From positions 348-64,347 of the forward strand of contig JALGZP010000002.1 of the NCBI GenBank assembly GCA_025774845.1: 64,000 nt of DNA, written 5' to 3'. A program made the position numbers and the translations under genes. The stretch comes from a bacterium. GTDB lineage: Bacteria > Arandabacterota > Arandabacteria > Arandabacterales > Arandabacteraceae. The notes beneath the pieces were generated by a model. That model made no database searches and was not told the origin of the DNA. It saw nothing but the letters and a program-made list of their open reading frames with translations. Positions 5,604-46,803 of the stretch are shown here, piece by piece. Within the stretch, counting starts at the first letter, position 1, and each line of letters starts with the position of its first letter.

Positions 5604-5651
5604 GACTTCGTCTCACTCCTTACGCTGTGAACCTGTAGGCTATGTTTAAGC

Positions 5652-16360: not shown

Positions 16361-16492
16361 CTATGCAGTTGGCTCGGAGACCTTCGCGGCCTTTGCCTTT
16401 GCCTTGATCTTCTTCTTTTTGCGAGGACGGGTGTTACCCGAGCTCTTCTTCCAGATCTTACCCTTCCGTGTCCTTCGATCTCCTCTTCCCAT
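16361..16492 (-). CDS. 30S ribosomal protein THX (bTHX), 43 aa, below the track length cut-off
   Basis: Hand translation gives MGRGDRRTRKGKIWKKSSGNTRPRKKKKIKAKAKAAKVSEPTA. This closely parallels the Thermus Thx sequence as I remember it ([25 protein letters not shown]). GGGAGG lies 8 nt upstream of the ATG. Overlaps the 3' end of the upstream gene by 35 nt in another frame. Confidence 0.7.
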   Translation of the reverse strand: MGRGDRRTRKGKIWKKSSGNTRPRKKKKIKAKAKAAKVSEPTA

Positions 16493-17750
16493 CTTTGATA
16501 CCTCCCATATAGATACAGTCCTCTATTTCGCCATACCCGCGGACGATGTCATCGGCAAAAGCGATGCAGGTCGGAGCACCGCAGCATCCGCAGTCGATCC
16601 TGGGCAGCGCATTGTATATTGTATCCTTCTGTTTCTTCTTTTCAATCGCTGTGGCCAGGTCGCTGGCAAGGGGCCGAAGCGGCCTTGGGGCCAGCTTCTT
16701 TTCAAGGGAATAATGTCCCTTGTTATACTTCTCTATAACTTCATCTCTGTCAACCGGAACCTTACCACCATACTTCCTGAGCAGGTGCAGAGTGCTGCTG
16801 CGTGCGACGTACATGTTCTCAACGACAAGCGATCCACCGATGCAACCACCCAGACACGAGGAGAGTTCTACGAATTCCACATCTCTGAGTTTGGAGTTCT
16901 CGATATCGTCAAGGATCTTTGTAACATCACTCATACCGGAAACGGCGATCGAATGCTCCGCACCTATCAGCCTGGTCATCTCCCCCAACATGGACCAGCC
17001 CGCACCGAACTTGAAGTCCCGGGCAACATCCTCGTCAATCTCTTCATTCTCGAGGTCGGCGACCGCTGAGAAGAGAGGAGCAAAGACATCGACGATCGAC
17101 ACGGCACCGTCTATCCAGGATTTCGCCTTTTCGGCAGGCTGTTTGATTGAGACGATCTTTGCGGGGCAGGTCGTGATATAGACTACACCGATCCCCCCGA
17201 CATCCACACCAAGCTCACGTGCCAGATTCTGCTTAACATCTCTGGCAGCTATCTCCCTGGGAACATCTACAGGCACAACCCTGCCGGTCAGATCCGGGTA
17301 CTTCACCTGAATCAACCTCACGACCGCAGGGCAGAACGAGGAGAGAACGGGGAGCCTGCCCCTGTGTTGGGCAATGGACTCATCGATCGCAATGCTCACC
17401 TCTTGACAAGCGAGGGATAGATCACACACATAGTCGAATCCGATTCGCTTGAGCCCCATTATCACTTTTCTCGGATCGACCTCGGGTCTGAACTGCGAAT
17501 AGAGCACCGGTGACGGTAGTGCTACCTTGTACTTGAAATCCAGAGACTGCGCAAAGGGATCCGTAAGCGGCACGATCGCACCCGAGGGACAGACATTTAT
17601 ACACTCACCGCAATCCACGCACAGCTCTTCAATCACCCTCGCCTTGCCGTCACGCATCCTTATCGCAGCTGTGGGACAGCTGCGCATACACTTCATTCTC
17701 CCGTCGCATCTTTCGTCAACGAACTCTATGGGGTGATAGTATTTTCCCAT
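16458..17750 (-). CDS. [FeFe]-hydrogenase large-subunit homologue of the putative sensory type (no PAS domain)
   Basis: 430 aa. N-terminal 2x[4Fe-4S] region (CMRSCP, CVDCGECINVCP). H-cluster-like motifs are SSFCPAV (L1, proton-relay Cys replaced by Phe), TTCPAK (L2) and SSCLGGCIGG (L3, Ser where catalytic enzymes have Met). C-terminal CGCCGAPTC-x16-C. Confidence 0.8.
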   Translation of the reverse strand: MGKYYHPIEFVDERCDGRMKCMRSCPTAAIRMRDGKARVIEELCVDCGECINVCPSGAIVPLTDPFAQSLDFKYKVALPSPVLYSQFRPEVDPRKVIMGLKRIGFDYVCDLSLACQEVSIAIDESIAQHRGRLPVLSSFCPAVVRLIQVKYPDLTGRVVPVDVPREIAARDVKQNLARELGVDVGGIGVVYITTCPAKIVSIKQPAEKAKSWIDGAVSIVDVFAPLFSAVADLENEEIDEDVARDFKFGAGWSMLGEMTRLIGAEHSIAVSGMSDVTKILDDIENSKLRDVEFVELSSCLGGCIGGSLVVENMYVARSSTLHLLRKYGGKVPVDRDEVIEKYNKGHYSLEKKLAPRPLRPLASDLATAIEKKKQKDTIYNALPRIDCGCCGAPTCIAFADDIVRGYGEIEDCIYMGGIKDGKRRSKDTEG

Positions 17751-17752
17751 CG

Positions 17753-18184
17753 CTAATCCGTGTGAATCGTTATGGCCAGTTTGGTGCCTTTCCCCACCTC
17801 GGATTCGATCTCGAAGTCATCTGCATTACGCTTAATGTTCGGAAGCCCCATTCCCGCCCCGAAACCCATCTCCCTCATTTCAGCGGTCGCGGTCGAATAG
17901 CCCTCCTCCATCGCCCGTTCGATACACTCGATGCCCGGGCCTTCATCCTCTAGCTCGATTCGTATGCTTGTCGGGGTGGCCGACAATCTCACCACCGCCC
18001 TCTTCGCATACATGACGATATTCATCTCGGCTTCATAGGATGCAATGGCCGCCCGTCTGATCTTCACCGGATCGAAACCGATTTCCTTGAGAATCGATTT
18101 TATCTCCGTAGAGACCGTACCCGCGTTGGTGAAGTCCTTGCCAAGGACTGAAAATTCTTGGAAGAACAGAACTTCATCGCTCAT
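17753..18184 (-). CDS. RsbW/SpoIIAB-like anti-sigma-type ATPase (HATPase_c) protein
   Basis: 143 aa. EDEGPGI...GFGAGMGLPNIKRNAD...GKGTKLAITI are GHKL ATPase G-boxes. ATGA overlap with the upstream gene. Confidence 0.75.
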   Translation of the reverse strand: MSDEVLFFQEFSVLGKDFTNAGTVSTEIKSILKEIGFDPVKIRRAAIASYEAEMNIVMYAKRAVVRLSATPTSIRIELEDEGPGIECIERAMEEGYSTATAEMREMGFGAGMGLPNIKRNADDFEIESEVGKGTKLAITIHTD

Positions 18185-18540
18185 TTTCCACCAATCTGGC
18201 TTCCGGATTTCATGCCCTTTTCATAGAGGCGGCCGCATGCTTCGAACATCGAAAGCGGACATGACAACAGCGGAATACCCTTCTGTCCGGCCAGCTTCAC
18301 CGCCTCCTCGTCGGGCGTCTTCCCGCGTACATAGACTATCGCTCGCACCTCTGCTACATGAGAGGTTATGACGGATTGGACGTTCCTTAAGCCCGTGAGA
18401 AGAATCCCGCCAGGTGCGGCGAACGCAAGCACATCGCTCATGAGATCGGCGCCGCACACTTCCTCGTAGTCGTGATCGAGCATATCTTCTCCCGTAATCA
18501 CCTCACACTCAATTACCTGGCATATTTCCTTTAGTGTCAA
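18181..18540 (-). CDS. DRTGG-domain-like small protein
   Basis: Track ORF is 18181..18606. I place the start at TTG 18540..18538, which sits 5 nt after GCAGGAGG and just past the upstream stop. Product (M)TLKEICQVIECEVITGED...GGILLTGL...VYVRGK resembles the small DRTGG proteins of NuoEF/[FeFe]-hydrogenase operons. Confidence 0.6.
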   Translation of the reverse strand: MTLKEICQVIECEVITGEDMLDHDYEEVCGADLMSDVLAFAAPGGILLTGLRNVQSVITSHVAEVRAIVYVRGKTPDEEAVKLAGQKGIPLLSCPLSMFEACGRLYEKGMKSGSQIGGK

Positions 18541-18556
18541 TGAAGCCTCCTGCTGT

Positions 18557-20875
18557 TCATACTCCCAGATACTTGCATATCGTACCAGCCGCGCCAACGC
18601 CCTCAACGAATGCTTCTTCGGCTATGACCGGAGACCGGCCAAAACCGCAGGCGAAGATGCCGGAAGCACTTGTGGCGAATGGGGCGGCCAGCGAATCACC
18701 CGTCGCTATGAACTTAAGATCGTCAAGCCTGACTCCGGCCACGCGCGCCAGCTCTTCGTGGTCCGAGCCGTGGAGATGCCCGACTGAAAGCACCACGGCG
18801 TCAAACTCGTTGGAAACACTCTTCCCATCCGTCGAGTCGACGGCTACCTTGAGAGCCCCTTCCGTAGTAATCCGTGGCTCACCCGTGATCTCGATGAAGT
18901 TTACCCCGAGGTCGGCGGCATCCGTGTAGAGATCCTCCTCGAAGCCAAAAACCCTGATCCCTCTGTGGAACACGGTTACCTCTGCGCCGGGATTGTCCTC
19001 TTTGAGTCTGAGCACGTTGGCCAGGGCTTGCTTGCAGCAGTACCTGCTGCAGTAGGGGTGTTCGGCGCTGCGTGCACCTACACACTGAATCATCGCCACC
19101 CGCTTCCAGGAAGCCCGGCCTCCGGTGATACGCTGGCGGAACTCACTCTGGGTCAGGATTGCCTCGTGCTCTCCATGGTGGTACCCCGCAGGCACATAGG
19201 CGTTCGCGCCGGTTGCCATCAGCATCGCACCTGCTTCGAGCGTCTTCTCACCCTGGGGGGTGGAAACCTTGACCGTGATCTTTCCATCCGACGTTTCTAC
19301 GGCCGCTACGGTGCTTTCCTTAAGAACCGTTGCAACCGGGTTCGTCTCTATGGCTTTCACAAAACCGTCAACCACATCGACCTCTGTGCCTTCGGCGATG
19401 GCGGCGAAAGTCAGAGGCTTGCCTATTTCCGCCGACTTCTCAACCACTGTCACTTCTACACCACGCCGCACGAGCTCACTCGCGGCGGCGAGACCCGAGG
19501 TGCCTCCGCCGACCACAACCACACTCGCGGGTCTCTTCTCCCTCCCGGCCTCCGGCAGCTGCGAGGCAGAGGAGCCCTCCGTGACCGAGGCCAATTTCGC
19601 CTTCAGGTCGCCGCTCAGGCCTTCACCACCCACAATCGTGACGCTTCCCCGGGGGAGACCCGAGACCGTCTCAAAGAGCTCTTCATGACTGCCTTTGTGA
19701 CATCCCACCACGACTATCGATGATGTCTCATCCAGATTCGCCCTCATCGCGGCTCTGCCGTCCTTGTAACAAAGGAACGGGTGGACGATACAAAGCCCTT
19801 CGACATCCGACCGGTTCACACCTGCAAGCTCGAGACCGTATTCACAGGCATACACGAACGTCTTGCCCTTGTGCCGGGGTGACTGCTGAGACGGCACAGC
19901 CCCTGAGGAGTCGAGTGATCTGGTTGATGCCGCCAATGCATCGATCACACTCCGGTAAACCGGAGCCGGTCCGCAAACGGCACCACCAAATGATACGGCT
20001 TCGGTCTCGGCGATGAGACTTCCTATGCTGCGTTCAATGAACCCGAACTTGTTGACCCTGATCCCCGCCGTCCTGGCATAGCGCTTGAAGCCGCCAAGGG
20101 CATGGACACCAACGGCAAGCACGACGAGATCGAATTTCGCTTCGGCGGTTTCACCCGCGGCTGAGTATCCAACACTCAGGGTCCCATCCCCGGGATCCTC
20201 CTTGACCGAGGTCACCTCTCCCTCGATGAACTCGATCCAGTTCTCGCCCTGAAGCTCCGAAAGATCGAGCTCACTCCCTTTACCCACTGGTCTTAAGCCC
20301 CTGTGGAATACATGGACCTCCACATCGCCGGCAAGCTTCCTGGCATGTCTGGCCTGTGAAAACGTACGCGAGCAGCAGTCCGATGAGCAGAAGTTCGCGC
20401 CAATGCCCTCTTCCCTCGAACCGACACACTGAATGAAAGCGATTCGTTTCGGTATGTCCCCGTCAAAGGGTCTTACCAGGAGTCCGCCGAATGGACCCGT
20501 GGGACTCACCAGACGCTCGAATTCGAAACTGGTTATCACGTTCGCAGCGTCCGCGTAGCCGAGCTCCTTCTTCCCGTCGGGGTTAAAGACCTGACCGTCG
20601 GACGTGAATACTATGGCGTCTGCTTCGAGCTCGACCCTGCTTGCCGCTTCATCGTAGACGATCGCCTTGGGATCACACTCTGCAAGACACAGCCCGCAGC
20701 CGATACAGCGCCGGCAGCTCAGGCACCGTGCTGCTTCCTTAAGAACCATCTCCTCCGAAAGCCCGAGTTCAACCTCTTCGAAGTTGAGATTCCTCTCTTC
20801 AAGCGGCAGTTCGGGCATCCTATTCCGCTCGGAAGGAATGTCTTTGAACTCGGGTATGAACTTCGGTTTCTTCAT
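18557..20875 (-). CDS. Large HdrA-related flavoprotein: N-terminal Fe-S module plus two HdrA-like modules
   Basis: 772 aa. CLSCRRCIGCGLCLAEC, then two CxGxR...C..CC signatures (IQCVGSREEGIGANFCSSDCC and IQCVGARSAEHPYCSRYCC) and one GGGTSG FAD site. Confidence 0.8.
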   Translation of the reverse strand: MKKPKFIPEFKDIPSERNRMPELPLEERNLNFEEVELGLSEEMVLKEAARCLSCRRCIGCGLCLAECDPKAIVYDEAASRVELEADAIVFTSDGQVFNPDGKKELGYADAANVITSFEFERLVSPTGPFGGLLVRPFDGDIPKRIAFIQCVGSREEGIGANFCSSDCCSRTFSQARHARKLAGDVEVHVFHRGLRPVGKGSELDLSELQGENWIEFIEGEVTSVKEDPGDGTLSVGYSAAGETAEAKFDLVVLAVGVHALGGFKRYARTAGIRVNKFGFIERSIGSLIAETEAVSFGGAVCGPAPVYRSVIDALAASTRSLDSSGAVPSQQSPRHKGKTFVYACEYGLELAGVNRSDVEGLCIVHPFLCYKDGRAAMRANLDETSSIVVVGCHKGSHEELFETVSGLPRGSVTIVGGEGLSGDLKAKLASVTEGSSASQLPEAGREKRPASVVVVGGGTSGLAAASELVRRGVEVTVVEKSAEIGKPLTFAAIAEGTEVDVVDGFVKAIETNPVATVLKESTVAAVETSDGKITVKVSTPQGEKTLEAGAMLMATGANAYVPAGYHHGEHEAILTQSEFRQRITGGRASWKRVAMIQCVGARSAEHPYCSRYCCKQALANVLRLKEDNPGAEVTVFHRGIRVFGFEEDLYTDAADLGVNFIEITGEPRITTEGALKVAVDSTDGKSVSNEFDAVVLSVGHLHGSDHEELARVAGVRLDDLKFIATGDSLAAPFATSASGIFACGFGRSPVIAEEAFVEGVGAAGTICKYLGV

Positions 20876-20877
20876 AT

Positions 20878-22566
20878 CTAACTCAGGTACTCCTTCATTG
20901 AATCGGCTGCTATGTGGCCCGCGCGTATTGCCTCAATCACCGTGGCAGGCCCGGTCACACCATCCCCCCCCGCATATATGCCGGGACGGTTGGTGGCCAT
21001 AGTCCTTTCGTCAACCACAAACGAGTTCCAACGCGATATCTCGAAGCCATGCTCGTCCGGGAGGAACGTGATATCCGGCTGCTGGCTGATGGCCGGAATG
21101 ATGAGATCGGCCTCGACGGTGAATTCCGAACCCTCGACAGGAATCGGCCGTCTTCGGCCGCTTGCATCGAGTTTGCCCAGTCTCATCTTGGTGCATTCCA
21201 TGCCGGCTACCTTTCCGCCTTTACCCAGGATCTTGACCGGTGCGGCAAGGTAGTGAATCTTGACGCCCTCCTCCTCCGCTCCCTCGACCTCCCAGTCGTT
21301 TGCAGGCATCTCCCTTCGCGATCTCCTGTAGAGTATGGTGACCTCCTCACAACCCAACCTGAGCGCCGTCCTTGCCGAATCGATCGCCGAGTTTCCGCCG
21401 CCTATGACTATCACCTTGTTACCCGGTCTTGTCTTGTCTCCGAGATTCACATCCCGGAGGAACTTTATACAGTCAAGAAAACCTTCGTAGTCGTCTTCCC
21501 CGGGCACCCTGAGTTTAAGACCTTCATATGCACCCACGCCCAGGAAGATTCCCTTAAAGCCCTGCTTGAAGAGGTCGTCGACCGTGAACTCCTTCGTGAG
21601 AGGGGTGTTGAGTTTTATCTCGACACCAAGATCTTCGATGTATGCAACATCACTCAAGAGGATGTCCCTGGGCAGCCTGTATTCGGGAATTCCGAGGTGC
21701 ATCATGCCGCCGGGCACGGGAGCGGCCTCAAAAACGGTTACCCGATAACCTTCAAGCGCGAGATCGTGTGCAACCGTAAGACCCGCGGGGCCGGCCCCCA
21801 CCACTGCCACTTTGGTCTTAAGGTCTTTCTTGGGCTTCGGCGGTACGAACTTGCCGGCCTTTCGCTGTGCGACCTCATAATCGCTTACAAAACGCTTGAG
21901 AGCATCAATCGCAATCGCCTCGTCCTGACGCCCCCTGTTACAGACCGTCTCACACGGATGAGGACAGATCCGGCCGCAAACTGCTGGCAGCGGATTCCTG
22001 TCACGAATAACTCTTATTGCTTCTTCGTACCGGCCACCGGCGATCAGTCCCACGTACCTTCTTATGTCTATGTGAACGGGGCATCGCTCCTGGCAGGCGG
22101 GTGTTTCCTTCTCGATATTGTACTCGCCCCCGAAAGTACGCGGCCCCGCAAAGTCTATCGCGGTCCTGAGCATCAAACCCTCGTTATAGCTATCATATGG
22201 CTTTATCGGACAGACAAGCAGGCACTCGGCGCAGGCATTACAGGCCTCGGTTACCCTGCCCGGCTGGTGAGTTAGACTGACTTTGATCCTGTCGTCTTTC
22301 TTACGCACGCTCCCGAGGGTCGAGTTCGTGAGTACCCTGATCCCCGGGTGAGCAAGAACCTCATTCACCAACTTGGATGAAAGACAGACCGATGGGAAGC
22401 CCTCGGGAACCACCCGTTCCTGCTTGAGCAAGAGCCCGCCCAGGAACGGCGACTCCTCAACAAGCGCAACCCTGGCGCCCGATCCCGCAACCTCGAGTGC
22501 TGCCGTAAGCCCGGTGATACCGCCACCGACAACAACTACTTCCCTCGGGGAAGACTTATCACTCAT
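20878..22566 (-). CDS. GltD/NfnB-like NAD(P)H oxidoreductase subunit with an N-terminal HdrA-like FAD fragment
   Basis: Start taken at MSDKSS (ATGAGTGA overlap with the mvhD stop). VVVGGGITG...ACNACAECLLVCP is followed by CGRICPHPCETVCNRG and VAVVGAGPAGL...PGGMMHLGIPEYRLPRD...VIGGGNSAIDSAR, typical of GltD/NfnB. Confidence 0.8.
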   Translation of the reverse strand: MSDKSSPREVVVVGGGITGLTAALEVAGSGARVALVEESPFLGGLLLKQERVVPEGFPSVCLSSKLVNEVLAHPGIRVLTNSTLGSVRKKDDRIKVSLTHQPGRVTEACNACAECLLVCPIKPYDSYNEGLMLRTAIDFAGPRTFGGEYNIEKETPACQERCPVHIDIRRYVGLIAGGRYEEAIRVIRDRNPLPAVCGRICPHPCETVCNRGRQDEAIAIDALKRFVSDYEVAQRKAGKFVPPKPKKDLKTKVAVVGAGPAGLTVAHDLALEGYRVTVFEAAPVPGGMMHLGIPEYRLPRDILLSDVAYIEDLGVEIKLNTPLTKEFTVDDLFKQGFKGIFLGVGAYEGLKLRVPGEDDYEGFLDCIKFLRDVNLGDKTRPGNKVIVIGGGNSAIDSARTALRLGCEEVTILYRRSRREMPANDWEVEGAEEEGVKIHYLAAPVKILGKGGKVAGMECTKMRLGKLDASGRRRPIPVEGSEFTVEADLIIPAISQQPDITFLPDEHGFEISRWNSFVVDERTMATNRPGIYAGGDGVTGPATVIEAIRAGHIAADSMKEYLS

Positions 22567-23347
22567 ATGCAGTCTCACCGTTACCTGAAAGTTCCCACAT
22601 CGGGGTGTTTCCCACGACGGAGTGTATCTCAGCAAAACCCATCTTCTTTAGATCCGCCATCTGTCTTACGAGAATCTTCGGTGCCGTGTCCATCTTGGTG
22701 GCCAGCTCTTTTACCGAATGGGGTTTACCCTTGAGCCGTTCCAGTATCTCTCTCAGTCTGAATTCATCCATCGCTATCTCGTCAAAGAGCCTACCTATCT
22801 CATGGGCCGTGAACTTCTCCCCGTAGAGGTTACCCTTCTCGGTGAATTCCACGATCTTGCCCGTGACCCATCTGATCTTACGGCCGCCGAGCGCCTTCCC
22901 CGCAGCCTGAAGCTTGACCTCAAGATCGTTCTTATCGATGCCCTCGGGCTTACCCAGGGGACCCAGCTCGGTGATATCCTTCTGGAACTCACCTGCGAAC
23001 TCGACGAACTTGTTGCCCTCAGCGCTCGACATCATACGCATCCGGAGTCTGGCAGGATCTATACCCGCCATCCTGAGGACCCGCTTGGTGATTTCCATCT
23101 TGCCCTCGGCATGGAGGTTACCCGAGGTATAATGGCACTCTCCACGCTTGCAGGCGCCCACGAACACTCCGTCCGCACCCGCCAGCAATGACTCGATGAC
23201 CATCACAGGATCCACCCTTCCCGAACACATCACTCTCACAACCCTGATGTCGGGTGCATATTGAAACCTCGCTACCCCGGCGAGGTCAGCCGCACTGTAT
23301 GCTCACCAGTTACAGCAGAAAGCTATGATGTGCGGTTTGAAACTCAT
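22559..23347 (-). CDS. mvhD: MvhD-like iron-sulfur subunit with in-frame UGA (candidate Sec in CCNW-U)
   Basis: Track ORF starts at 23239. Extending upstream in frame gives [47 protein letters not shown], with TGA at 23303..23305. The ATG at 23347 lies 2 nt after the upstream stop. Without the extension the conserved N-terminal Cys block of MvhD is missing. Confidence 0.8.
23267..23285 (-). promoter_or_regulatory. Candidate bacterial SECIS hairpin for UGA 23303
   Basis: mRNA folds as CCUCGC-CGGGGUA-GCGAGG. The 6-bp stem starts 18 nt after the UGA and loop Gs lie at +25 to +28. Confidence 0.6.
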
Positions 23348-23349
23348 AC

Positions 23350-27462: not shown

Positions 27463-27880
27463 GTTTCCTCCTCCTGGTTGTTTTCTTGAACTGCTTGAGG
27501 AAGTTCCCAAGCACCCTCTTGTATTCCTTGCCCCCGCTCTCCGATATCATGTGAAAGCCGAGGCGTTTCCCCGGTACTCCGGCAATCTCAAGTATCTCCT
27601 GCGTCTCCTTTACTATCTCTCCGCATCTCTGGCTTCCGTTGTAGTAATGACAGTCTCCCTCCTCACAACCCAGTACCAGTACTCCGTCGAAACCCTTGGC
27701 AAACAGCTTCAGCAGGAAAGACACCTTGACCAGACCTGTACATTTGACCGGTATGACAGTCGGACCCGCGTCACAGGTGAAGCCATCCTTCGCGGCATTC
27801 TCCATCGCTGTAAGCGGATGCCATTTGCACGGCACTATTGCCACCTTCGTTTTGATGCTATATACCCCCTGCCGCTTCAA
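27437..27880 (-). CDS. Second MvhD-like Fe-S protein (all-Cys version)
   Basis: 147 aa. VPVKCTGLVKVSFLLKLFAKGFDGVLVLGCEEGDCHYYNGS parallels VMCSGRVDP...GACKRGECHYTSGN of the neighbouring MvhD. Start codon uncertain (the track start is a TTG with no clear RBS). Confidence 0.7.
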   Translation of the reverse strand: MKRQGVYSIKTKVAIVPCKWHPLTAMENAAKDGFTCDAGPTVIPVKCTGLVKVSFLLKLFAKGFDGVLVLGCEEGDCHYYNGSQRCGEIVKETQEILEIAGVPGKRLGFHMISESGGKEYKRVLGNFLKQFKKTTRRRKRVASRGRR

Positions 27881-29612
27881 TAGTCGTATCGATCAGACGG
27901 GCCGTCATATCGGCGTGCGAAAGCGCGCCCGAAGGGCAAACTGAGACACACACTCCGCAACCCACACACTGAATCGGAATCACCTCTGCCCGCTTCAAGC
28001 CGTCTTCGTCAACCACGAGCTCGATGGCGCCGTGCCGGCACACCTCTTCACAACGGCCGCACCCCCTGCACAGGTCCCGGTCGACAGTGGTCGTACGCGC
28101 AATACGCTCTACCTTGCCGAGACTGATGAGGTCGAATGCCCGCGAGGCGGCGCCGTAACCCTGTACGATCGACTCGGTGATCGTCGACGGCCAGTGCGCA
28201 CTCCCCGCAACGAAAACACCTCTCGGAGCATACTCCTCAGGCCTCACCTTAAGCCTCGGCTCCACCAGGAAGCCGTAGCTGTCAGTCGGTATCTTGAACA
28301 TCCGGGCGAGTGATGTGTTCGTCGCCGGGGGCAGCATCGGCACCGCAAGCACAATGCGGTCGAACGGTATGTGGGCTTCCATCTCGGATATCTGGTCGTA
28401 GACCTCAACCGTGGTGTCTCCGAGGACGGGCGGCTTCTCCGGTGAGTACCGGATTATGTCGACACCCATGTCCCTCGCCCGGTCAAGATCACCGGCATAA
28501 CCTGCAAAGCCCCGCGACAGTATCGTCACCTGCGAAGCCGGGAACTTCTGCTTGATCAGGATCGCGTTCTTGATTGAGGCCGTACAACATATACGTGAGC
28601 AATAAGGTCTTTCATCGTTCCGCGATCCCACACACTGGATCATCACGACGTCTGAACCGGGATTGTCCCCACGCTTGAGTATGGCTTCGAACTCAACCTG
28701 GGTAACCACCTGGTCGCGTTCACCGTAGCCAAACAGACCCTTCGGCGTAAGCAGGTCCGCCCCGGTGGCAACAATTATCACACCTGCTTCGATCTTTTCG
28801 CCGCCGGTGAGCTCAATCTCGAAATTCCCGACATGACCGCGGACCGAAACCGGTTCCACCCCGGTTTTCACCTCGACCGCGCCCGCATCGATGTTCCGTG
28901 ACTGGCCGTTGAGAAACTCGGATGCTTCTATGTAGGACGGGAAGACGATGTTGAGTTGTTTTAGCAGTCCCCCGACACTTTCATCCTTCTCTACTATGAT
29001 TGTCTTTACACCTCTCGAAGCCATGGCCGTGGCCGCCGACATACCCGCTATACCACCACCCAGCACAACGCACACCGGTTTGATATCGGCTTCTACCTTT
29101 TCCATCGGACTCGTGCCGGCTACACGGGCAACAGCCATATTTATGAGCCCCAGTGCGCCCGATGTCGTTGCCTTCTTTGCTCCCGGCGGGGCCGAGCACA
29201 ACCTGCTTATGTCCGCAAACTCCACCAGTGAAGGATCGATACCCGACTGCGCCAGAATGTTCCTGAAGAACTTGCCGTACAACCGCTCACTGCTGCCGGC
29301 GACAACTACCCGTGACAGTCCGCGTTTGACAATCAGAGCGCCGATCGCATCTATCTTCCCGATCGTGCAGGGGTAGTCCTGGACCTTGACGAGGGCCACC
29401 TCGGGATTTGCCGCCACCTGTTTCTCGAGTGAGGTGATATCGAGCACACGTGAGAGATCGCTCTCACACTGCGATATTACGACGGCGACACCTGTACCCT
29501 TTGCCCGGACCGGCCGCGTTTGGGATTTCTTTGCAGGGCGTTTCTTGGCGGGTCGTTTCCGGACCCGCGTCGCCTTCTTCGACTTCTTCTTTGTCCGTGT
29601 CTTTCCCGGCAT
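27858..29612 (-). CDS. HdrA paralogue with degenerate (Cys-poor) N-domain and a Lys/Arg-rich N-terminal tail
   Basis: Start taken at ATG 29612 (GAGGAG upstream). MPGKTRTKKKSKKATRVRKRPAKKRPAKKSQTRPVRAK, then VLGGGIAGMSAA, IQCVGSRNDERPYCSRICCT, and CRGCGRCEEVCRHG / CVGCGVCVSVCP. Confidence 0.8.
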   Translation of the reverse strand: MPGKTRTKKKSKKATRVRKRPAKKRPAKKSQTRPVRAKGTGVAVVISQCESDLSRVLDITSLEKQVAANPEVALVKVQDYPCTIGKIDAIGALIVKRGLSRVVVAGSSERLYGKFFRNILAQSGIDPSLVEFADISRLCSAPPGAKKATTSGALGLINMAVARVAGTSPMEKVEADIKPVCVVLGGGIAGMSAATAMASRGVKTIIVEKDESVGGLLKQLNIVFPSYIEASEFLNGQSRNIDAGAVEVKTGVEPVSVRGHVGNFEIELTGGEKIEAGVIIVATGADLLTPKGLFGYGERDQVVTQVEFEAILKRGDNPGSDVVMIQCVGSRNDERPYCSRICCTASIKNAILIKQKFPASQVTILSRGFAGYAGDLDRARDMGVDIIRYSPEKPPVLGDTTVEVYDQISEMEAHIPFDRIVLAVPMLPPATNTSLARMFKIPTDSYGFLVEPRLKVRPEEYAPRGVFVAGSAHWPSTITESIVQGYGAASRAFDLISLGKVERIARTTTVDRDLCRGCGRCEEVCRHGAIELVVDEDGLKRAEVIPIQCVGCGVCVSVCPSGALSHADMTARLIDTTIEAAGGI

Positions 29613-29629
29613 GGTCTCCTCAAACAAAC

Positions 29630-30277
29630 TCAGGGACTTCCGTAATGCGTCTCACACACAATACACCTGAAAGTGTCCTTCGAGCCTCCAACGCTGTGAA
29701 GACTCCTTCGCGCAAATACTTTCCTAAGGTCAAACGTTCTGGCCGGACAGATCGTGGTACAGGTACCGCATCCCACGCAGACATTCGATTCCTGGCCGAA
29801 GGGTGGTACCACCTCACTCTCAGGACCTCGATTGGCGAATCCGATCGCCCCGACCCCGACGATCTCCTTGCAGGCCCTGACACACATCCCACACAGATAG
29901 CACTCTTCCTCACCCTTCGGAAACGGATTGGTTTTGACTCCGAGCTCCTTTGCCTTGTGCCTTATGATTTCGATGTCGGGGCACCGGGCGAGAAGCAGGG
30001 TTATGATCATCCTGCGGATTTCTGTTACCAGCTTTGTCTCCGTCCTCACAACCATTCCGTCCGCCACCGGTGTCACACACGAAGCCATCGTTCTTGTCCG
30101 CCCCCCCTGCTTGACCTCGACAACGCACAGCCGGCACGACCCGATCGGTGTCAGGGCTTCATGGTAACAAAGTGTCGGGATCTCGATCCCCATCTCCTTC
30201 GCTACCTCGAGGATGGTCCGGCCCTTTTCGGCCTTCCGGTTCCTGCCGTCGATCCTGATGCTCAATGTGTCGCTCAT
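29630..30277 (-). CDS. NuoG/HydA-N-terminal-like [2Fe-2S] plus 2x[4Fe-4S] ferredoxin subunit with no catalytic domain
   Basis: 215 aa. IRIDG...CYHEALTPIGSCRLCVVEV...ASC (plant-type 2Fe-2S), then CYLCGMCVRAC and CVGCGTCTTICP. Confidence 0.8.
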   Translation of the reverse strand: MSDTLSIRIDGRNRKAEKGRTILEVAKEMGIEIPTLCYHEALTPIGSCRLCVVEVKQGGRTRTMASCVTPVADGMVVRTETKLVTEIRRMIITLLLARCPDIEIIRHKAKELGVKTNPFPKGEEECYLCGMCVRACKEIVGVGAIGFANRGPESEVVPPFGQESNVCVGCGTCTTICPARTFDLRKVFARRSLHSVGGSKDTFRCIVCETHYGSP

Positions 30278-30283
30278 TTGGAT

Positions 30284-32113
30284 TTACTCCACATAAATCG
30301 CATCACCAGCAATCGCATCGAACTTGCACACTTCATAGCATGCGCCGCACTTTATGCATTTGGCTTGATCCAGATTGTGAGGTTGCGCCCTTGCTCCCGC
30401 CAACGCGCCTACCGGACAAGCCTTGACACATCTCTGGCAGCCCGTGCACTTATCCGCAACGACTCTGTAAACGATAAGAGCCTTGCAGACCTTTGCCGGA
30501 CAGCGCTTCTTGTATATGTGCGCTTCATATTCATCACGGAAATACTTGAGTGTAGTGAGTACCGGGTTTGGCGCCGTGGCTCCGAGACCGCAGAGCGATG
30601 CCTCCTTGATCGTCACCGCCAGACTCTCAAGCAGATCTATGTCACCCCGTCTGCCCTCACCCTTGACGATCCGTCCGAGGATTTCTCTCATCCTCCTGAT
30701 TCCCTCCCGGCAGGGTGTGCATTTCCCGCAGGATTCCTCCTCAAGGAAGGCCACGAAGTAATGGGCGACATCGACCATACAGGTATCCTCATCCATCACG
30801 ATCAGGCCTCCCGACCCCATGATCGAACCCGCCTTCGAGAGCTCCTCATAATCCACGGGAAGATCGATCAAAGACGTCGGGATGCAGCCGCCGGAGGGTC
30901 CCCCGCTCTGCACGGCCTTGAACTCCCTGTCCTTGAGTACCCCACCGCCGATATCATATATGATCTGCCTGAGCGTGGTCCCCATCGGAACCTCGATCAG
31001 ACCGGTGTTCTTTATCTTCCCCACAAGCGAGAAGACCTTTGTCCCCTTGCTCTTCTCGGTTCCGAGTGATGCGTACCAGTCTCCGCCGCGCAAAATGATG
31101 GGCGCCACGTTCGCCCAGGTTTCAACGTTGTTTACATTCGTGGGCTTGCCCCAGAGCCCGCTCTCCGCGGGAAATGGCGGACGTGGTCTCGGGCGACCCT
31201 GTTCGCCTTCAATCGATGCCATCAAGGCGGTTTCCTCGCCACAGACGAACGCCCCCGCACCCCTCACCACATTGATCTCGAAGTTGAAGCCGGTCCCGAG
31301 GATATTCTCACCCAAAAGACCGTACTCATGAGCGACTTCAATTGCCTTTGTCACGCGCTCAAGTGCCAGCGGGTACTCTTCTCTCACGTATATGTATCCG
31401 ACGTCAGCCCCGATCGCGCGCGCACCGATTGTCATCCCCTCGAGCACCGAGTGCGGATCGGACTCAAGCAGGCTCCTGTCCATAAAAGCCCCGGGATCTC
31501 CCTCGTCGGCGTTGCATATCACGTACTTACCATCCGGGCCGGGAGATTTCCTGCATATCCCCCACTTGATCCCCGTCGGGAAACCCCCACCTCCTCGTCC
31601 CCTCAAACCGGCTTTCTTGACCTCATCTATGATGTCCTCCGGCTTCATCTCCGTGAGAGCCTTCGGGAGCGCAAGATAACCCTCATTTGCGATGTAGTCA
31701 TCTATGCTGTCGGGATCGATCCTCCCGCGGTTTCGCATCGCAATCAGAACCTGATCCTTGAAAAAGCCGATATCCGAAAGCGAAGGCAGCGAATCCAGTC
31801 CCGGCTTCTCGCCGATCGTGAGACGCTTGACCACCTTCCCACCAACCAGGTGTTTCTTGACTATCTCTTCAACATCGCCGGCGGTTACTTTCCCATAGAC
31901 GGTCCCACCGGGTTCGACGGTTACAACGGGGCCCAGATTGCAGTACGCGTTGCACCTTCCCCCGGTCACCTTGACCCTGCCCGGGACCCTATGGCGCCCG
32001 AGCGATGCTTCGAGAGCTTGTTTCACCTCCCGCGCACCGTTTAAAACACAGCATGTGCCATAGCACACACTGACGGTCATCTGCTTGCGGCCGGATTTCT
32101 TAGTCATATCCAC
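30284..32113 (-). CDS. NuoF/HydB/HndC-like NAD(P)H-binding flavoprotein subunit
   Basis: 609 aa. N-terminal thioredoxin-like 2Fe-2S module, RGRGGGGFPTGIKW FMN-site signature, ESCGKCTPCREG, and C-terminal CTGCQRCVKACP / CIKCGACYEVC. The ATG at 32107 is the more likely start. Confidence 0.9.
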   Translation of the reverse strand: MDMTKKSGRKQMTVSVCYGTCCVLNGAREVKQALEASLGRHRVPGRVKVTGGRCNAYCNLGPVVTVEPGGTVYGKVTAGDVEEIVKKHLVGGKVVKRLTIGEKPGLDSLPSLSDIGFFKDQVLIAMRNRGRIDPDSIDDYIANEGYLALPKALTEMKPEDIIDEVKKAGLRGRGGGGFPTGIKWGICRKSPGPDGKYVICNADEGDPGAFMDRSLLESDPHSVLEGMTIGARAIGADVGYIYVREEYPLALERVTKAIEVAHEYGLLGENILGTGFNFEINVVRGAGAFVCGEETALMASIEGEQGRPRPRPPFPAESGLWGKPTNVNNVETWANVAPIILRGGDWYASLGTEKSKGTKVFSLVGKIKNTGLIEVPMGTTLRQIIYDIGGGVLKDREFKAVQSGGPSGGCIPTSLIDLPVDYEELSKAGSIMGSGGLIVMDEDTCMVDVAHYFVAFLEEESCGKCTPCREGIRRMREILGRIVKGEGRRGDIDLLESLAVTIKEASLCGLGATAPNPVLTTLKYFRDEYEAHIYKKRCPAKVCKALIVYRVVADKCTGCQRCVKACPVGALAGARAQPHNLDQAKCIKCGACYEVCKFDAIAGDAIYVE

Positions 32114-32981
32114 CCAGAACCTGCGGGATCTTCTCCTGGGTCATCTTCCCGTAGAATTTCCCGTCAACAACGAATACCGGAGCCAGTCCGCAGCAACCCA
32201 CACATCTCACGGACTCAAGCGAGAACTTGTCATCATAGGTGGTCTCACCCGTGTGAATTCCCAACTCCCGCTCGAAACTGTCGAGAAGGTTGGTGCCTCC
32301 CCTCACATGACAGGCAGTCCCCAGACACACGTGGATCATGTGTCTCCCCCTCGGAAGCAGGCTGAATGACTTGTAGAAGGTCGCAATTCCATAAACCCTC
32401 GGAAGATCGATGTTGACTCTTCCTGCGACAAACCTCAGCGCCTCCTGAGGCAGGTAGTTGAGTTCCTTCTGTATATCCTGCAAGTAGGAAATCAGCATGG
32501 ATTCTGAAAAGCGATGTTTGGCAAGGATCCCGTCAATCGCAGCAAGACTTGCGGGATCGTCAAAACTCTTGATCCTCCGCTCCCTGGCTTTCTCCCTGGT
32601 TTCGACCTCCATGCGTTCCTTACCCAACGCGTGGGATATCATGTCGGAGAGTTCCGGCATGGGGCTGAACTTGGAGATGTAGTTGTAGGCTCCTCTCCGC
32701 ATCGCCTCCACGGCCCCTTCGACGGTCGGAGTTGCCGTCTCGCCTATGATCGGAACCATCGGCATGATATCGTGGACGGTCTTCAGAAGCATCAGGCCGT
32801 CATCATGAGGAAGATCGAGATCAATGATAACGAGATGGGGAGGTCTTGCACCTATCTCGGAAAGCAAGGCGGCCCCGTCGGGAGCCAGTCGTACCGCATA
32901 CCCGTGGCCGGTCAGTGCGCTTTCTAACTCACTCCGCCTTCCGGGTTCTTGCTCCAATACTAGAAGAACAAGTTCGATCAA
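32100..32981 (-). CDS. Receiver (REC)-domain fused to NuoE/HydC-like [2Fe-2S] subunit
   Basis: 293 aa with a TTG start after AAAGGA. N-terminus LVLLVLEQEPGRR...HLVIIDLDLPHDDG...ISKF follows a CheY-like pattern. C-terminus HVCLGTACHVRG...VRCVGCCGLAPV carries the NuoE Cx4C...Cx3C cluster motif. Confidence 0.8.
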   Translation of the reverse strand: MIELVLLVLEQEPGRRSELESALTGHGYAVRLAPDGAALLSEIGARPPHLVIIDLDLPHDDGLMLLKTVHDIMPMVPIIGETATPTVEGAVEAMRRGAYNYISKFSPMPELSDMISHALGKERMEVETREKARERRIKSFDDPASLAAIDGILAKHRFSESMLISYLQDIQKELNYLPQEALRFVAGRVNIDLPRVYGIATFYKSFSLLPRGRHMIHVCLGTACHVRGGTNLLDSFERELGIHTGETTYDDKFSLESVRCVGCCGLAPVFVVDGKFYGKMTQEKIPQVLGGYD

Positions 32982-33010
32982 GCGATGTCCTTTCTACACC
33001 CAGGTACTGC

Positions 33011-33376
33011 CTAGTGGAGGCTCTCGGCGCCAGCGCCGAGAACAAACTTGCCGACCGGTTTCCCCCCGAGAACATGTTCCGCGTAAATCTGTTTTGCCTT
33101 GGCTCCATCGAGATCGCAGTACTTCACCGGAGGCGCTCCGGGGAGTTCGACCGTCATCATCGGCTCCCGCGAGCAAAGCCCGGCACACCCTGTAGTCTTA
33201 ATCGTGACACCCGATTTCCCGAGTTCTTCTGAAGCTGAGAGAACAGCTTCAAGCACACCCTCGGATCCGGATGCTATACCACACGTACCCATATGGACTA
33301 TGACCAACCTGGATTTCTTGCGGTTCTTCAGGTCACGATAGTGGGACTGCAGCTTCTCAGCACTGAGTTTCTGCAT
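33011..33376 (-). CDS. Thioredoxin-like [2Fe-2S] ferredoxin (HndB-like)
   Basis: 121 aa. VHMGTCGIASG...TTGCAGLCSREP. Confidence 0.75.
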   Translation of the reverse strand: MQKLSAEKLQSHYRDLKNRKKSRLVIVHMGTCGIASGSEGVLEAVLSASEELGKSGVTIKTTGCAGLCSREPMMTVELPGAPPVKYCDLDGAKAKQIYAEHVLGGKPVGKFVLGAGAESLH

Positions 33377-33411
33377 ATCGTTCCCCGTTTGTGTAGTTCG
33401 GCCCTGATCGC

Positions 33412-33750
33412 CTATCCGACAGGCTTGAGGCCGGCTTCGTAGAGCTGGACGGCGACCTTGAACGAATCGAGATCTGTTCCGAAGACGGTCACGCCGACCT
33501 TGTCCGCCATCTTCACCGTGTCTTCCGGAACCTTCTTCCCCCTCACGACTATGATTGCAGGAACATCTACAAGATTTGCGGCGGCGATAGTGTTCTTATG
33601 GGTCTGGACCGTAACCCAGACGCTGCCCGCCTGTGCACCCGCCATGACATCGCTGAGCATGTCGGAGATGAAGGCGCCGTCGATCTCGTTTTCAGTAACC
33701 TTGTTCAAGGGTTTGAAATTCAGTTTGGTTTCCAGGTCTTTGACTGTCAC
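33412..33750 (-). CDS. DRTGG-domain-like small protein
   Basis: 112 aa. FISDMLSDVM...VWVTVQTHKNTIAAANLVDVPAIIVVRGKK parallels the 18181..18540 product. Confidence 0.6.
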   Translation of the reverse strand: MTVKDLETKLNFKPLNKVTENEIDGAFISDMLSDVMAGAQAGSVWVTVQTHKNTIAAANLVDVPAIIVVRGKKVPEDTVKMADKVGVTVFGTDLDSFKVAVQLYEAGLKPVG

Positions 33751-33775
33751 GGTTTGGCCTCCTTCATTTGGCGAT

Positions 33776-34309
33776 CTAACCCTCAGGGGTCAGGCTGAGC
33801 ATGCCCACATCCTTGAGCATCTCGCCACGACATAGATCGGGTCTTCTTGTCAGGGAACCGGGTACAACCAGTATCTTCTTGCCGGGCGTACGGAGTCTCG
33901 ATGTAAAGTAGTCGGTCAAGATCACCAGTTTCTCGACCGGCAGATCGACCTCTTCCCCGAGTTGATAGGACAGGGCGGCATAGAGCCAGACGTTCTGTCC
34001 CTCGCAGATCCGGGACATTATGTTTACATGGCACTCAGGATCACAACCCACGCAATGCATCAGACCCATCAGGTCTTCGAACGGGACGGTCTTCTCGCAC
34101 CTGGTGCAAACCATATCGAACTTGACCGACTGGGCGCTCCCGGCATAGTTCCAGTAGTGATCGTCCTCTTTGTATTCATCCTTTGGAGGAACATCTTCAT
34201 AGGAGAAGTACACGCGATTCTTGTTACAGTGGTAACATTTCTCAGTTACTATGAAACCGTCCCTGAGATTTGTCATTTTCCAGGTGTGGTCGCACTCATC
34301 ACTAACCAT
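33776..34309 (-). CDS. Cys-rich (zinc-ribbon-like) hypothetical protein, first gene of the operon
   Basis: 177 aa with GGGAG RBS. CxxC-type pairs CYHC, CTRC and CVGCDPEC. I recognise no family. Confidence 0.6.
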   Translation of the reverse strand: MVSDECDHTWKMTNLRDGFIVTEKCYHCNKNRVYFSYEDVPPKDEYKEDDHYWNYAGSAQSVKFDMVCTRCEKTVPFEDLMGLMHCVGCDPECHVNIMSRICEGQNVWLYAALSYQLGEEVDLPVEKLVILTDYFTSRLRTPGKKILVVPGSLTRRPDLCRGEMLKDVGMLSLTPEG

Positions 34310-34373
34310 ATTGTTCTCCCTGCGCGGATTCAGTCAGATCCCGACCCGAGGCCCACCCGAGTCCTTACGACAC

Positions 34374-34402
34374 AGAATACGGGGGCAAAACGGCAATGTC
34401 AA
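34374..34402 (-). promoter_or_regulatory. Candidate sigma70 promoter for the Hdr/Nuo operon (TTGACA-N17-TATTCT)
   Basis: Minus strand reads TTGACA (34402..34397), a 17-nt spacer, then TATTCT (34379..34374). Lies about 65 nt upstream of the ATG at 34309. Confidence 0.4.
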
Positions 34403-37138: not shown

Positions 37139-37185
37139 ATATTACTATATTGCACTCAACGTCATGGGGAAAGTGCTTTCGATCG

Positions 37186-46797: not shown

Positions 46798-46803
46798 CCC
46801 GGG

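Follow-up and report, generated by a model that had tools for sequence, protein, structure and literature searches.

In this work we analysed 64,000 nucleotides (nt) of bacterial DNA (GTDB lineage Arandabacterota; assembly GCA_025774845.1, contig JALGZP010000002.1, positions 348 to 64,347), hereafter the window, and describe an operon of 17 genes on its minus strand, numbered g1 to g17 in transcription order. The operon is a widespread new combination of known bifurcation modules, which is found in many uncultivated sediment phyla. We give an even chance to the idea that its products form one soluble, selenocysteine (Sec)-containing multi-flavin/iron-sulfur assembly, which is built from three known kinds of module and acts as a redox hub. 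An earlier note on this DNA had put forward a soluble NAD(P)H/ferredoxin/disulfide complex containing selenium. This proposal was reasonable and its selenium and its modules are supported, but the acceptor served by g9 may not be a disulfide. Among characterised systems, BamDEFGHI, which supplies class II benzoyl-CoA reductase with electrons as its chassis, comes closest to the operon, as described in a preprint (10.64898/2026.04.10.717634); the Bam proteins were compared through this description only and not by sequence alignment. We infer a single physical complex, its electron path, its substrates and its regulatory logic, while the rest of the account consists of observations on genes, motifs and synteny.

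The operon and the promoter-like site in front of it are located as follows.
34309 to 16458, minus strand: operon g1-g17, 17 tightly packed genes.
34374..34402, minus strand: promoter-like site TTGACA-17-TATTCT, in the 102-nt gap upstream of g1.

With the start codons judged best, intergenic distances in g1-g17 range from -35 to +35 nt. The 17 same-strand genes with their short gaps and the three overlaps named in the earlier note were reproduced at the same coordinates, i.e. ATGA at 25035-25038 (g10/g11), ATGAGTGA at 22559-22566 (g12/g13) and ATGA at 18181-18184 (g15/g16). Reading frames also overlap at g8/g9 and at g9/g10. The limits of the operon are set by synteny breaks, which define the unit better than a promoter scan does. 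Indeed, g1 is the first gene in the window and in two related loci retrieved from other genomes (such loci carry L-numbers; here L070 and L071), each time behind unrelated upstream neighbours, and the single compact unit proposed before is thereby upheld in three genomes. The promoter-like site is the top sigma-70 match of the region (10/12) and its position fits the conserved operon start. Matches of the sigma-70 type are not in excess in this region (13, as compared to 9.3 +/- 3.0 in shuffles). Promoter and terminator scans remain at background level and are therefore uninformative on transcription units.

For a survey of related loci, one genome per species was scanned with an alignment of g14, which returned 63 loci. 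These belong to Eisenbacteria, Zixibacteria, KSB1, Gemmatimonadota, TA06, Coatesbacteria, Zhuqueibacterota, candidate division B38, Aminicenantes and Methylomirabilota, with more distant g14-type loci in Desulfobacterota, Chloroflexi and others; a relative of g14 at 86% identity is labelled Candidatus Eisenbacteria. Of 56 non-duplicate loci, 41 have the order g11-g12-g13-g14, and contig ends cut most of the others; g9-g10 were found in 26 of the 27 loci with enough upstream DNA. A further pair of HdrA and MvhD genes lies upstream of g9 in nearly all loci reaching far enough (21/22), and a BfuA gene upstream of this pair in 10/15. Across about 40 species-level genomes, which belong to Eisenbacteria, Zixibacteria, KSB1, Gemmatimonadota and further phyla, the arrangement of the block g7-g14 is retained. 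The entire 17-gene order recurs in GCA_029933125.1 (L001 plus L070), while GCA_052744595.1 (L071) keeps g1 to g11, up to the end of the DNA examined, and GCA_053497275.1 (L006) keeps g5 to g17. The search for synteny in public genomes thus recovered the gene order in dozens of independent genomes, a recurrence that places it far beyond chance. Fusions in three metagenome-assembled genomes (MAGs) are the best available evidence for contact of the Bfu, HdrA and HdrL parts, as far as this can be read from gene structure: in L045 (Thermodesulfobacteriota, 485-5640), BfuB is followed by a 1092-aa fusion of a BfuA-like part (Fer2_4 + 2 Fer4) to HdrA; L049 (Chloroflexi) encodes a 1035-aa HdrA-HdrA fusion; and L069 (Syntrophobacterales) encodes a 1502-aa HdrL in which the g13 part and two HdrA parts are joined.

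The module nearest to the operon start is encoded by g3 to g6.
33011..33376, minus strand: g3, 121-aa thioredoxin-like [2Fe-2S] ferredoxin, HydD-like; weak Pfam match to 2Fe-2S_thioredx; conserved in L070 and L071.
32100..32981, minus strand: g4, BfuC/NuoE/HydC-like [2Fe-2S] subunit with an N-terminal response-regulator receiver domain.
30284..32107, minus strand: g5, BfuB/HydB-type NuoF with GGGGFPTGIKW.
29630..30277, minus strand: g6, short BfuA of 215 aa with one 2Fe-2S and two [4Fe-4S] sites, BamI-like; Pfam Fer2_4 + Fer4.

Judged by domains and alignments, g4 to g6 have the features of Bfu family subunits, and g6 would make the module a Type-2 Bfu, which in the scheme of Schut et al. 2022 has a short BfuA fed by further subunits (PMC9304861). 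In g5, Pfam detects an N-terminal thioredoxin-like [2Fe-2S] domain, the site for flavin mononucleotide (FMN) and NADH, NADH_4Fe-4S and a C-terminal 2x[4Fe-4S] domain. The protein aligns over its full length with BfuB 7t2r_B (1e-244) and with HydB 7q4v_B, Stn 8oh5_B and NfnB 9n5u_B (down to 1e-200), whereas its match to NuoF of complex I is far poorer than that to these bifurcating BfuB chains. The top match of g6 is 9mqx_A, a 247-aa NuoG-like chain (1.5e-37), followed by the N-termini of BfuA proteins. In g4, Response_reg (1.2e-17) precedes 2Fe-2S_thioredx (2.9e-47), and this fusion of receiver and BfuC was found in all full-length entries among the best 120 g4 clusters.

The following six genes encode HdrA, MvhD and CCG proteins.
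27858..29612, minus strand: g7, HdrA paralogue of the g11 type with a degenerate N-terminal domain, a thioredoxin reductase (TrxR)-like flavin adenine dinucleotide (FAD) unit and a C-terminal ferredoxin domain.
27437..27844, minus strand: g8, short MvhD/FlpD with CKWH replacing CCNWC; start uncertain, 27844 or 27880.
26320..27462, minus strand: g9, HdrD/BamD-like protein with two cubane [4Fe-4S] motifs and two CCG domains; Pfam Fer4_8 + 2xCCG.
25035..26330, minus strand: g10, selenoprotein HdrA core, i.e. TrxR-FAD unit with inserted ferredoxin domain.
23350..25038, minus strand: g11, HdrA paralogue with N-terminal Fe-S domain, TrxR-FAD unit and C-terminal ferredoxin domain.
22559..23347, minus strand: g12, long MvhD of 262 aa with Sec15 (FCCNW-U-AY) and a C-terminal region resembling a winged helix-turn-helix (HTH), BamF-like.

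Altogether, the operon contains four to five HdrA-type units (g7, g10, g11 and g14, plus the N-terminus of g13). The several HdrA units and the two MvhD proteins (g8 and g12) that had been called earlier are borne out by Pfam. Comparison of g10 with HdrA of M. wolfeii (5odc_A, residues 146-564) yielded an E-value of 4e-130 and an identical motif ending in (C/U)ILAPKM. The Sec residue of g10 aligns with Cys197 of HdrA, within the DCSxC motif in which some methanogens carry Sec. HdrA is matched by g11 with E 5e-124 in two blocks that skip residues ~244-327, as the inserted ferredoxin domain is absent, and g7 likewise has neither the inserted ferredoxin domain nor the CxxC. According to the alignment, g7, g10 and g11 have the equivalent of Lys409, the lysine with which HdrA contacts flavin N5, and in both units of g14 it is replaced; in g7 its presence follows from the sequence CSRICCTASIKN. 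Of the MvhD proteins, g12 matches FlpD (3.4e-47) and, at residues 197-246, HTH_11 with a value (1.2e-4) below the curated cut-off, while g8 orthologues have His where g12 has Sec.

The CCG protein g9 had been taken as a disulfide-reductase module. The module is present, but it need not serve disulfide reduction. Across 26 aligned sequences the second CCG domain does not vary, while the first one has only four invariant Cys residues; a fifth Cys occurs in 31% of the orthologues, among them g9 of the window. Since a four-Cys CCG pattern is reported for BamD, which reduces electron-transferring flavoprotein (ETF), g9 may, by analogy, be no disulfide reductase.

Selenium is predicted to enter the assembly at two positions, each followed by a hairpin resembling a selenocysteine insertion sequence (SECIS).
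26163-26165, minus strand: in-frame Sec codon TGA of g10.
26125..26142, minus strand: SECIS-like hairpin GGAUGCC-GGUC-GGCAUCC, 21 nt after the UGA of g10.
23303-23305, minus strand: in-frame Sec codon TGA of g12, in the context FCCNW-TGA-AYSAADLAG.
23267..23285, minus strand: SECIS-like hairpin CCUCGC-CGGGGUA-GCGAGG, 18 nt after the UGA of g12.

From comparative sequence data, we regard both in-frame TGA codons as genuine Sec sites. TGA was found in 34 of 34 orthologous loci at the g10 position, which is Cys in distant homologues, and in 47 of 47 at the g12 position; homologues with Cys at the Sec positions come from Chloroflexi, Dehalococcoidia and Syntrophobacterales. The selenium anticipated in the complex thus finds support in codons that are conserved in all orthologous loci compared and replaced by Cys in homologues. 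The g10 hairpin has 83% of its cells paired across loci, as compared to 19-51% in slid controls, and one C-G to U-A change; the g12 hairpin comprises 6 pairs, one of which changes from C-G to U-A in 4 sequences. Covariation in the hairpins was not significant, the sequence variation being too small. RNAalifold did not recover the g10 hairpin and the folding energies of the hairpins were no better than those of shuffles. No selABCD genes and no tRNA-Sec are present in the 64-kb window, in which Rfam at gathering thresholds and a tRNA scan gave no match. Of note, in-frame identity of g10 in collinear loci is 55-96%, which is among the highest in the operon, and even when translated out of frame it was matched by tblastn in orthologous loci, at 31-69% identity along most of its length. 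These out-of-frame matches result from the unusually strong nucleotide conservation of the gene.

The third module is spread over two genes.
20878..22566, minus strand: g13, N-terminal part of HdrA (FAD fold and start of the inserted ferredoxin domain) followed by an NfnB/GltD-type NADPH module.
18557..20875, minus strand: g14, the rest of the interrupted HdrA unit and a second TrxR-like FAD unit.

According to Pfam, g13 comprises a short FAD fold, Fer4_20 and a GltD-type Pyr_redox_2 domain. Its residues 8-163 correspond to HdrA 140-301 and residues 153-562 to the GltD/NfnB module, while residues 52-320 of g14 correspond to HdrA 285-556 and residues 446-772 form the second TrxR-like unit. It follows from this mapping that g13/g14 is an HdrA divided between two genes, with an NADPH module interrupting its inserted ferredoxin domain. 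The nearest NADPH modules to residues 156-561 of g13 are 9bov_A, NfnA 9n5u_A and Stn 8oh5_C (2e-117 to 7e-106), and its stretch YRRSRREMPA is of the GltD/NfnB type, which we take to be NADPH-binding. Hence, both pyridine-nucleotide modules recognised earlier are in place, one NuoF/BfuB-type (g5) and one GltD/NfnB-type (g13). HdrL, a fusion of HdrA and GltD, has been described together with MvhD in Db. autotrophicum (PMC2702500), and an insertion of NfnB into HdrA in HdrA9-11 of the anaerobic methanotrophic archaea ANME-1 (PMC9012536). By domain order, g13/g14 and the adjacent MvhD g12 correspond to HdrL-MvhD, with HdrL split in two open reading frames (ORFs).

The remaining genes lie at both ends of the operon.
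33776..34309, minus strand: g1, 177-aa Cys/His-rich protein, first gene of the operon.
33412..33750, minus strand: g2, small DRTGG-domain protein with a weak Pfam match (E 5.6e-5), conserved in L070 and L071.
18181..18540, minus strand: g15, DRTGG-domain protein.
17753..18184, minus strand: g16, 143-aa GHKL/anti-sigma-type ATPase, HATPase_c_2, SpoIIAB-like (8.5e-12).
16458..17750, minus strand: g17, group D (M2e)-type putative sensory [FeFe]-hydrogenase homologue; Fe_hyd_lg_C + PF04060.

Homologues of g1 form 43 clusters at 49-87% identity, which makes g1 more conserved than several of the operon's enzymes. Twelve positions are conserved (C6, H8, C25, H27, C28, C68, C71, C86, C89, C93, C102 and C160). 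The protein belongs to no Pfam or NCBIfam family, and its AlphaFold2 model (mean predicted local distance difference test score 78.6) gave no significant fold match in the PDB (best E 0.066). It might be an assembly factor, a metal-binding regulator or a redox partner. A DsrC/TusE-like carrier was also considered for g1 and found no supporting evidence. For 10 products scanned (g1-g3, g7, g9 and g13-g17) no match to an NCBIfam model attained the curated cut-off, and these can therefore not be named as equivalogs.

The [FeFe]-hydrogenase homologue g17 had been regarded as sensory rather than catalytic, and we retain this view. Putative sensors of group D/M2e are characterised by loss of Cys299, replacement of Met353 by Ser or Thr, a C-terminal Cx2Cx4Cx16C and absence of a PAS domain (PMC8163306). 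These motif features assign g17 to this group as a putative sensor: C299 is replaced by F, M353 by T and M497 by S, and the protein has two N-terminal [4Fe-4S] motifs, a C-terminal Cx2Cx4Cx16C, no PAS domain and a kinase-like ATPase as its neighbour. In a competing explanation g17 would be catalytic and the operon would encode an H2-dependent or H2-evolving Bfu/Hdr hydrogenase complex. It could draw on the retention of all four H-cluster Cys and of Lys358, on the slow but reversible interconversion of H+ and H2 by the group D protein TamHydS (PMC8163306), and on the fact that Bfu modules classically partner [FeFe] hydrogenases. We consider it very improbable, as Phe takes the place of the proton-transfer residue Cys299 and Met353 and Met497 are replaced, which is the signature of putative sensors. 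In addition, similarity of g17 to catalytic enzymes is weak (E 5e-18), 12 of 32 core-bearing loci do without it, and, like TamHydS, it is accompanied by a kinase-like ATPase and a DRTGG protein (PMC8163306). The latter protein, g15, directly follows g14 in 19 of the 32 loci with enough DNA.

As stated previously, no catalytic partner is evident: when the remaining large ORFs in the 64-kb window were scanned with Pfam, no aldehyde:ferredoxin oxidoreductase (AOR), no hydrogenase catalytic subunit and no formate dehydrogenase (FDH) was detected, and none was seen in those related loci of this type that were inspected. L001, L003-L006, L070 and L071, which are annotated relatives, have no AFOR_N/AFOR_C, hydrogenase, FDH or tungsten enzyme, so the adjacent hydrogenase or FDH gene that would have told against the proposal is not encountered there. 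The expected lack of a membrane anchor holds as well, with transmembrane-like segments in 0 of the 17 products. Without a substrate-reducing subunit, the assembly would be best understood as a reversible hub that passes electrons among NADH, NADPH, ferredoxin and one further high-potential carrier.

In such a hub, the Type-2 Bfu module (g3-g6) would exchange electrons with NADH and ferredoxin. The candidate for the HdrA-type bifurcating flavin is g10, which combines the CxxU selenenylsulfide pair with a Lys at flavin N5 and an inserted ferredoxin domain. It would form an asymmetric pair with g11, wired together by g12, by analogy with BamF. A second HdrA/MvhD pair would be provided by g7/g8; the MvhD proteins and the HdrAs of the g7 and g11 types are seen as wiring. 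High-potential electrons would leave through g9 towards a disulfide or a protein acceptor such as ETF, and the split HdrL g13/g14 would handle NADPH, the second TrxR-like unit of g14 being presumably non-bifurcating. As in class II benzoyl-CoA reductase, electrons might run in series through the confurcation/bifurcation site of Bfu and the bifurcation site of HdrA.

Regulation is suggested by g17, g16, g2, g15 and the receiver domain of BfuC, which could place the hub under control of H2 or redox state. Such tuning would suit fermentative sediment bacteria that dispose of reducing equivalents as H2 builds up. BfuC is the subunit whose domain movement gates Bfu-type bifurcation. Combining these points, one may picture a supercomplex in which the FMN site of Bfu, the FAD site of HdrA and the NfnB-type FAD site are chained without any catalytic metal centre, as a stand-alone four-way exchanger between NADH, NADPH, ferredoxin and a thiol/disulfide or ETF-like carrier, and which is gated post-translationally: H2 sensed by g17 would be signalled via the kinase-like ATPase and the DRTGG proteins to the receiver domain on BfuC. 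We find this picture as a whole improbable.

The single redox hub has to be weighed against two further explanations. The main rival, to which we assign a rather low probability, assumes two or three separate, co-located enzymes, with a Bfu-HdrA-MvhD enzyme (g3-g8) and a self-contained NADPH-dependent Hdr enzyme (g9-g14). In the latter, NADPH would enter via HdrL and bifurcation at g10 would serve ferredoxin and the g9 acceptor, as an NADPH analogue of Flx-Hdr/Mvh-Hdr. Several observations speak for such a division and count against a single regulated assembly. On a Gemmatimonadota chromosome (L003) the g9-g14 block stands alone, without Bfu within 10 kb; in Desulfobacterales MAGs a g9-g14-type block sits inside nuo operons, attached to NuoG/H/J/L-N rather than to Bfu. 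It follows from the Bfu-free locus and the nuo operons that the Bfu and Hdr/HdrL parts can work apart. Moreover, g11-g14 occur alone in L005, L036 and L042, and HdrL-MvhD is described as independent loci in Db. autotrophicum (PMC2702500). As to regulation, the phospho-acceptor Asp of the receiver domain is present in g4 of the window and not universal in the family, and the sensor set g16-g17 follows the core in 20 of 32 loci and is missing from the other 12. However, the HdrA+MvhD pair precedes g9 directly in all but one of the 22 informative loci, often with BfuA in front of it (10/15), and the frames of g8/g9 and g9/g10 overlap. Furthermore, L045 fuses BfuA to HdrA units, genes for receiver-BfuC share contigs with the cores of L038 and L039, and homologous modules form one complex in class II benzoyl-CoA reductase (10.64898/2026.04.10.717634). 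These findings favour the single hub.

Alternatively, the operon could encode a chassis for a catalytic partner encoded elsewhere, such as a BamB-like tungsten enzyme, MetFV, DsrC/sulfite reductase or some other reductase requiring electrons below ferredoxin potential. There is precedent for this in class II benzoyl-CoA reductase, where BamDEFGHI drives BamBC (10.64898/2026.04.10.717634), and in Db. autotrophicum, whose HdrL loci adjoin dsr or fdh genes (PMC2702500). The distant relative L062 has an AOR-family gene nearby, L069 has two nearby ORFs that resemble MetV/MetF by eye only, without a family scan, and our view is limited to 64 kb of the genome, which also detracts from the idea of a self-sufficient hub. 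Nevertheless, no such gene lies in the window or in the annotated relatives listed above, and the operon ends at unrelated, non-conserved neighbours. It would be unusual for a stoichiometric subunit never to be linked in about 40 genomes of several phyla, and we judge this explanation decidedly unlikely.

The Desulfobacterales and other deltaproteobacterial loci just mentioned are observations in their own right. In L053 (10901-18378), L058 (10964-15931) and L059 (10872-20136), genes for HdrD, HdrA(Sec), HdrA, MvhD(Sec) and HdrL are followed by NuoH and a NuoJ-like ORF, the latter named from its sequence only, so that the Hdr/HdrL genes occupy the nuoEF place of a complex-I operon. L053 additionally encodes one Pfam-confirmed NuoL-type antiporter-like subunit and two more large hydrophobic ORFs, similar in size to NuoM/N. 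A NuoG-like gene stands before NuoH in L058. This gene (10964-13651) is split into ORFs of 345 and 533 aa within the molybdopterin domain (break 12001/12050), which could be due to a Sec codon, a frameshift or an assembly error. In L055, NuoE- and NuoF-like genes instead follow HdrL. The location of the Hdr/HdrL block inside nuo operons points to a role as input module of a complex-I-like pump.

Other relatives have neighbours of a different kind. L062, a Proteobacteria MAG, encodes a canonical 1123-aa HdrA with NfnB insertion (4602-7973) and, 7 kb downstream, the AOR-family (BamB-like) gene (14718-16649); this may be another HdrA-driven tungsten enzyme. In L005 (GCA_900175145.1, 4114-7461), genes for an FMN_bind protein, a malic enzyme and a protein sorted by the type IX secretion system (T9SS) stand between the g12 and g13 orthologues, and the malic enzyme could be a source of NADPH. 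Genes linked to oxygen stress directly precede the operon in L070 (7308-7700) and L071 (6229-8675) and are absent from the window; they encode rubrerythrin/ferritin-like, flavodiiron-type (Lactamase_B+ODP) and Flavin_Reduct+Rubredoxin proteins. In L006 (18031-22307), 4 kb downstream of the operon, there are genes for Fer4_22, a DHODB-type FAD/NAD protein, Fer4_11, NuoH, NuoB and NuoC-like proteins.

In the window itself, a B12-binding radical S-adenosylmethionine (SAM) gene (34412-35698, same strand) ends 102 nt upstream of g1 and is not conserved beside the operon in L070/L071. The other large ORFs of the window are unrelated to the operon and encode sulfatases, T9SS-sorted proteins, the B12 radical-SAM protein, an acetyl-CoA synthetase, an ammonia-lyase and others. 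Proteins with a T9SS-type C-terminal sorting domain, two sulfatases and an arylsulfotransferase-like protein are encoded at 14057-16282, 35777-39048, 43756-48084 and 50678-52495; T9SS proteins and sulfatases in the flanks fit an organism of the Fibrobacteres-Chlorobi-Bacteroidetes (FCB) group that degrades sulfated polymers. Two long antisense ORFs on the plus strand, 29450-31069 (539 aa, opposite g5) and 20914-22275 (453 aa, opposite g13), show nothing that suggests genes. Coding-strand GC skew is strong along the operon (-0.13 to -0.20).

To our knowledge, no enzyme with two different bifurcation modules was known before the 2026 structure of class II benzoyl-CoA reductase. In case the operon encodes one complex, serial bifurcation would be a general route by which anaerobes trade electrons among their main redox carriers, rather than a specialty of aromatic degradation, and the operon provides a defined gene set for expression and for the study of coupled-site gating. 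A description of this gene order, or of a named complex of this composition, was not found in the searchable literature. The split Sec-containing BamE-like pair, the receiver-domain BfuC, g1 and a group-D H2 sensor attached to a non-hydrogenase likewise appear to be unreported there. The claim that the composition matches no known arrangement was too strong, however, as the parts match known systems module by module (Bfu, BamDEF and HdrL).

Compared with the hydrogenase-linked sensor TamHydS of group D, g17 shares the missing Cys299, the replacement of Met353 by a hydroxyl residue, the Cx2Cx4Cx16C, the absence of PAS and the neighbouring histidine-kinase-like ATPase. TamHydS, in contrast, adjoins a bifurcating HydABC hydrogenase, whereas g17 adjoins a Bfu/Hdr assembly without HydA. 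With HdrABC-MvhAGD and FlxABCD-HdrABC, the operon has in common the g10 core that matches methanogen HdrA, the MvhD adaptor, and CCG- and HdrC-type clusters in g9, but HdrB and HdrC are fused and the functions of HdrA are divided among paralogues. It is not Mvh-Hdr, since neither the operon nor the other large ORFs of the window contain a [NiFe] hydrogenase MvhA/MvhG domain, and not Flx-Hdr, since the 17 products contain no FlxA-type domains. It is not NfnAB either, because NfnA, i.e. a protein with FAD_binding_6, NAD_binding_1 and DHODB_Fe-S_bind, is absent from the operon.

Similarities to Bfu Type 2, NfnABC and StnABC extend to a full-length BfuB (g5), a BfuC contained in g4 and a short BfuA (g6). 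Owing to these Bfu subunits and to the similarity of the g13 NADPH module, sites for NADH, NADPH and ferredoxin are all present as in NfnABC/Stn. However, the NADPH module is inserted in HdrA and not fused to BfuA, for which reason the operon is no plain Nfn-Bfu or Stn, and its two nucleotide sites are separated by four to five HdrA units, two MvhD and an HdrD-like protein. HdrL-MvhD (HdrL1-3 of Db. autotrophicum; HdrABC/HdrL of S. fumaroxidans, Sfum_0819-0824) and ANME-1 HdrA-NfnB share the NfnB/GltD module inserted into HdrA's ferredoxin domain. HdrL-MvhD resembles the operon also in the associated, often Sec-containing MvhD, in its solubility and in that its function is only predicted; the retrieved relatives L062 and L069 are single polypeptides of 1123-1502 aa. 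Unlike these, the operon protein is split after the GltD part and gains a second TrxR-like unit, and it forms part of a larger conserved block to which a Bfu module and a sensor set also belong.

The most extensive likeness is that to the chassis of class II benzoyl-CoA reductase, which was described by cryo-electron microscopy as Bam[(BC)2DEFGHI]2 from Geobacter metallireducens (10.64898/2026.04.10.717634). In that complex, BamGHI is a Bfu-type confurcating input, with BamI passing electrons to the C-terminal ferredoxin domain of BamE. BamE is a fused HdrA dimer: its first TrxR unit has the CxxC, the Lys, the inserted ferredoxin domain and the bifurcating FAD beside the Cys59-Cys62 pair, while the second unit has the C-terminal ferredoxin domain. 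The relay BamF is a long MvhD, >100 aa beyond the usual length, with Sec19 near its [2Fe-2S] cluster and a winged HTH. BamD, in which one non-cubane cluster site is incomplete, serves as high-potential exit towards ETF and BamBC as low-potential exit (10.64898/2026.04.10.717634 for all of these features).

The operon likewise joins a Bfu/HydBC-type NuoEFG module to an HdrA-type module, and its order g9-g10-g11-g12 equals BamD-BamE-BamF (HdrD-like protein, HdrA units, long MvhD). In g12, the 262 aa, Sec15 and HTH-like tail (HTH_11, below the Pfam cut-off) recall BamF; g10 is reminiscent of the first and g11 of the second unit of BamE; and orthologues of g9 have one complete CCG domain and another with four invariant Cys, which may correspond to the incomplete site of BamD, while g9 of the window has all five. 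In contrast to BamE, its putative equivalent in the operon takes up two genes, and one residue of the CxxC pair is Sec. The Bfu genes precede the Hdr genes in the operon, i.e. they lie upstream, and are downstream in Bam, the operon's BfuC has a receiver domain, and an extra HdrA/MvhD pair (g7/g8) and the HdrL NADPH module (g13/g14) are added. As the tungsten-pterin enzyme BamB and BamC are both absent, the operon does not encode a benzoyl-CoA reductase. Taken together, class II benzoyl-CoA reductase uses two modules for one very hard reduction, while the operon has the same chassis plus an NADPH module, two selenocysteines, a receiver-domain BfuC and an H2-sensor set, with no catalytic subunit attached.

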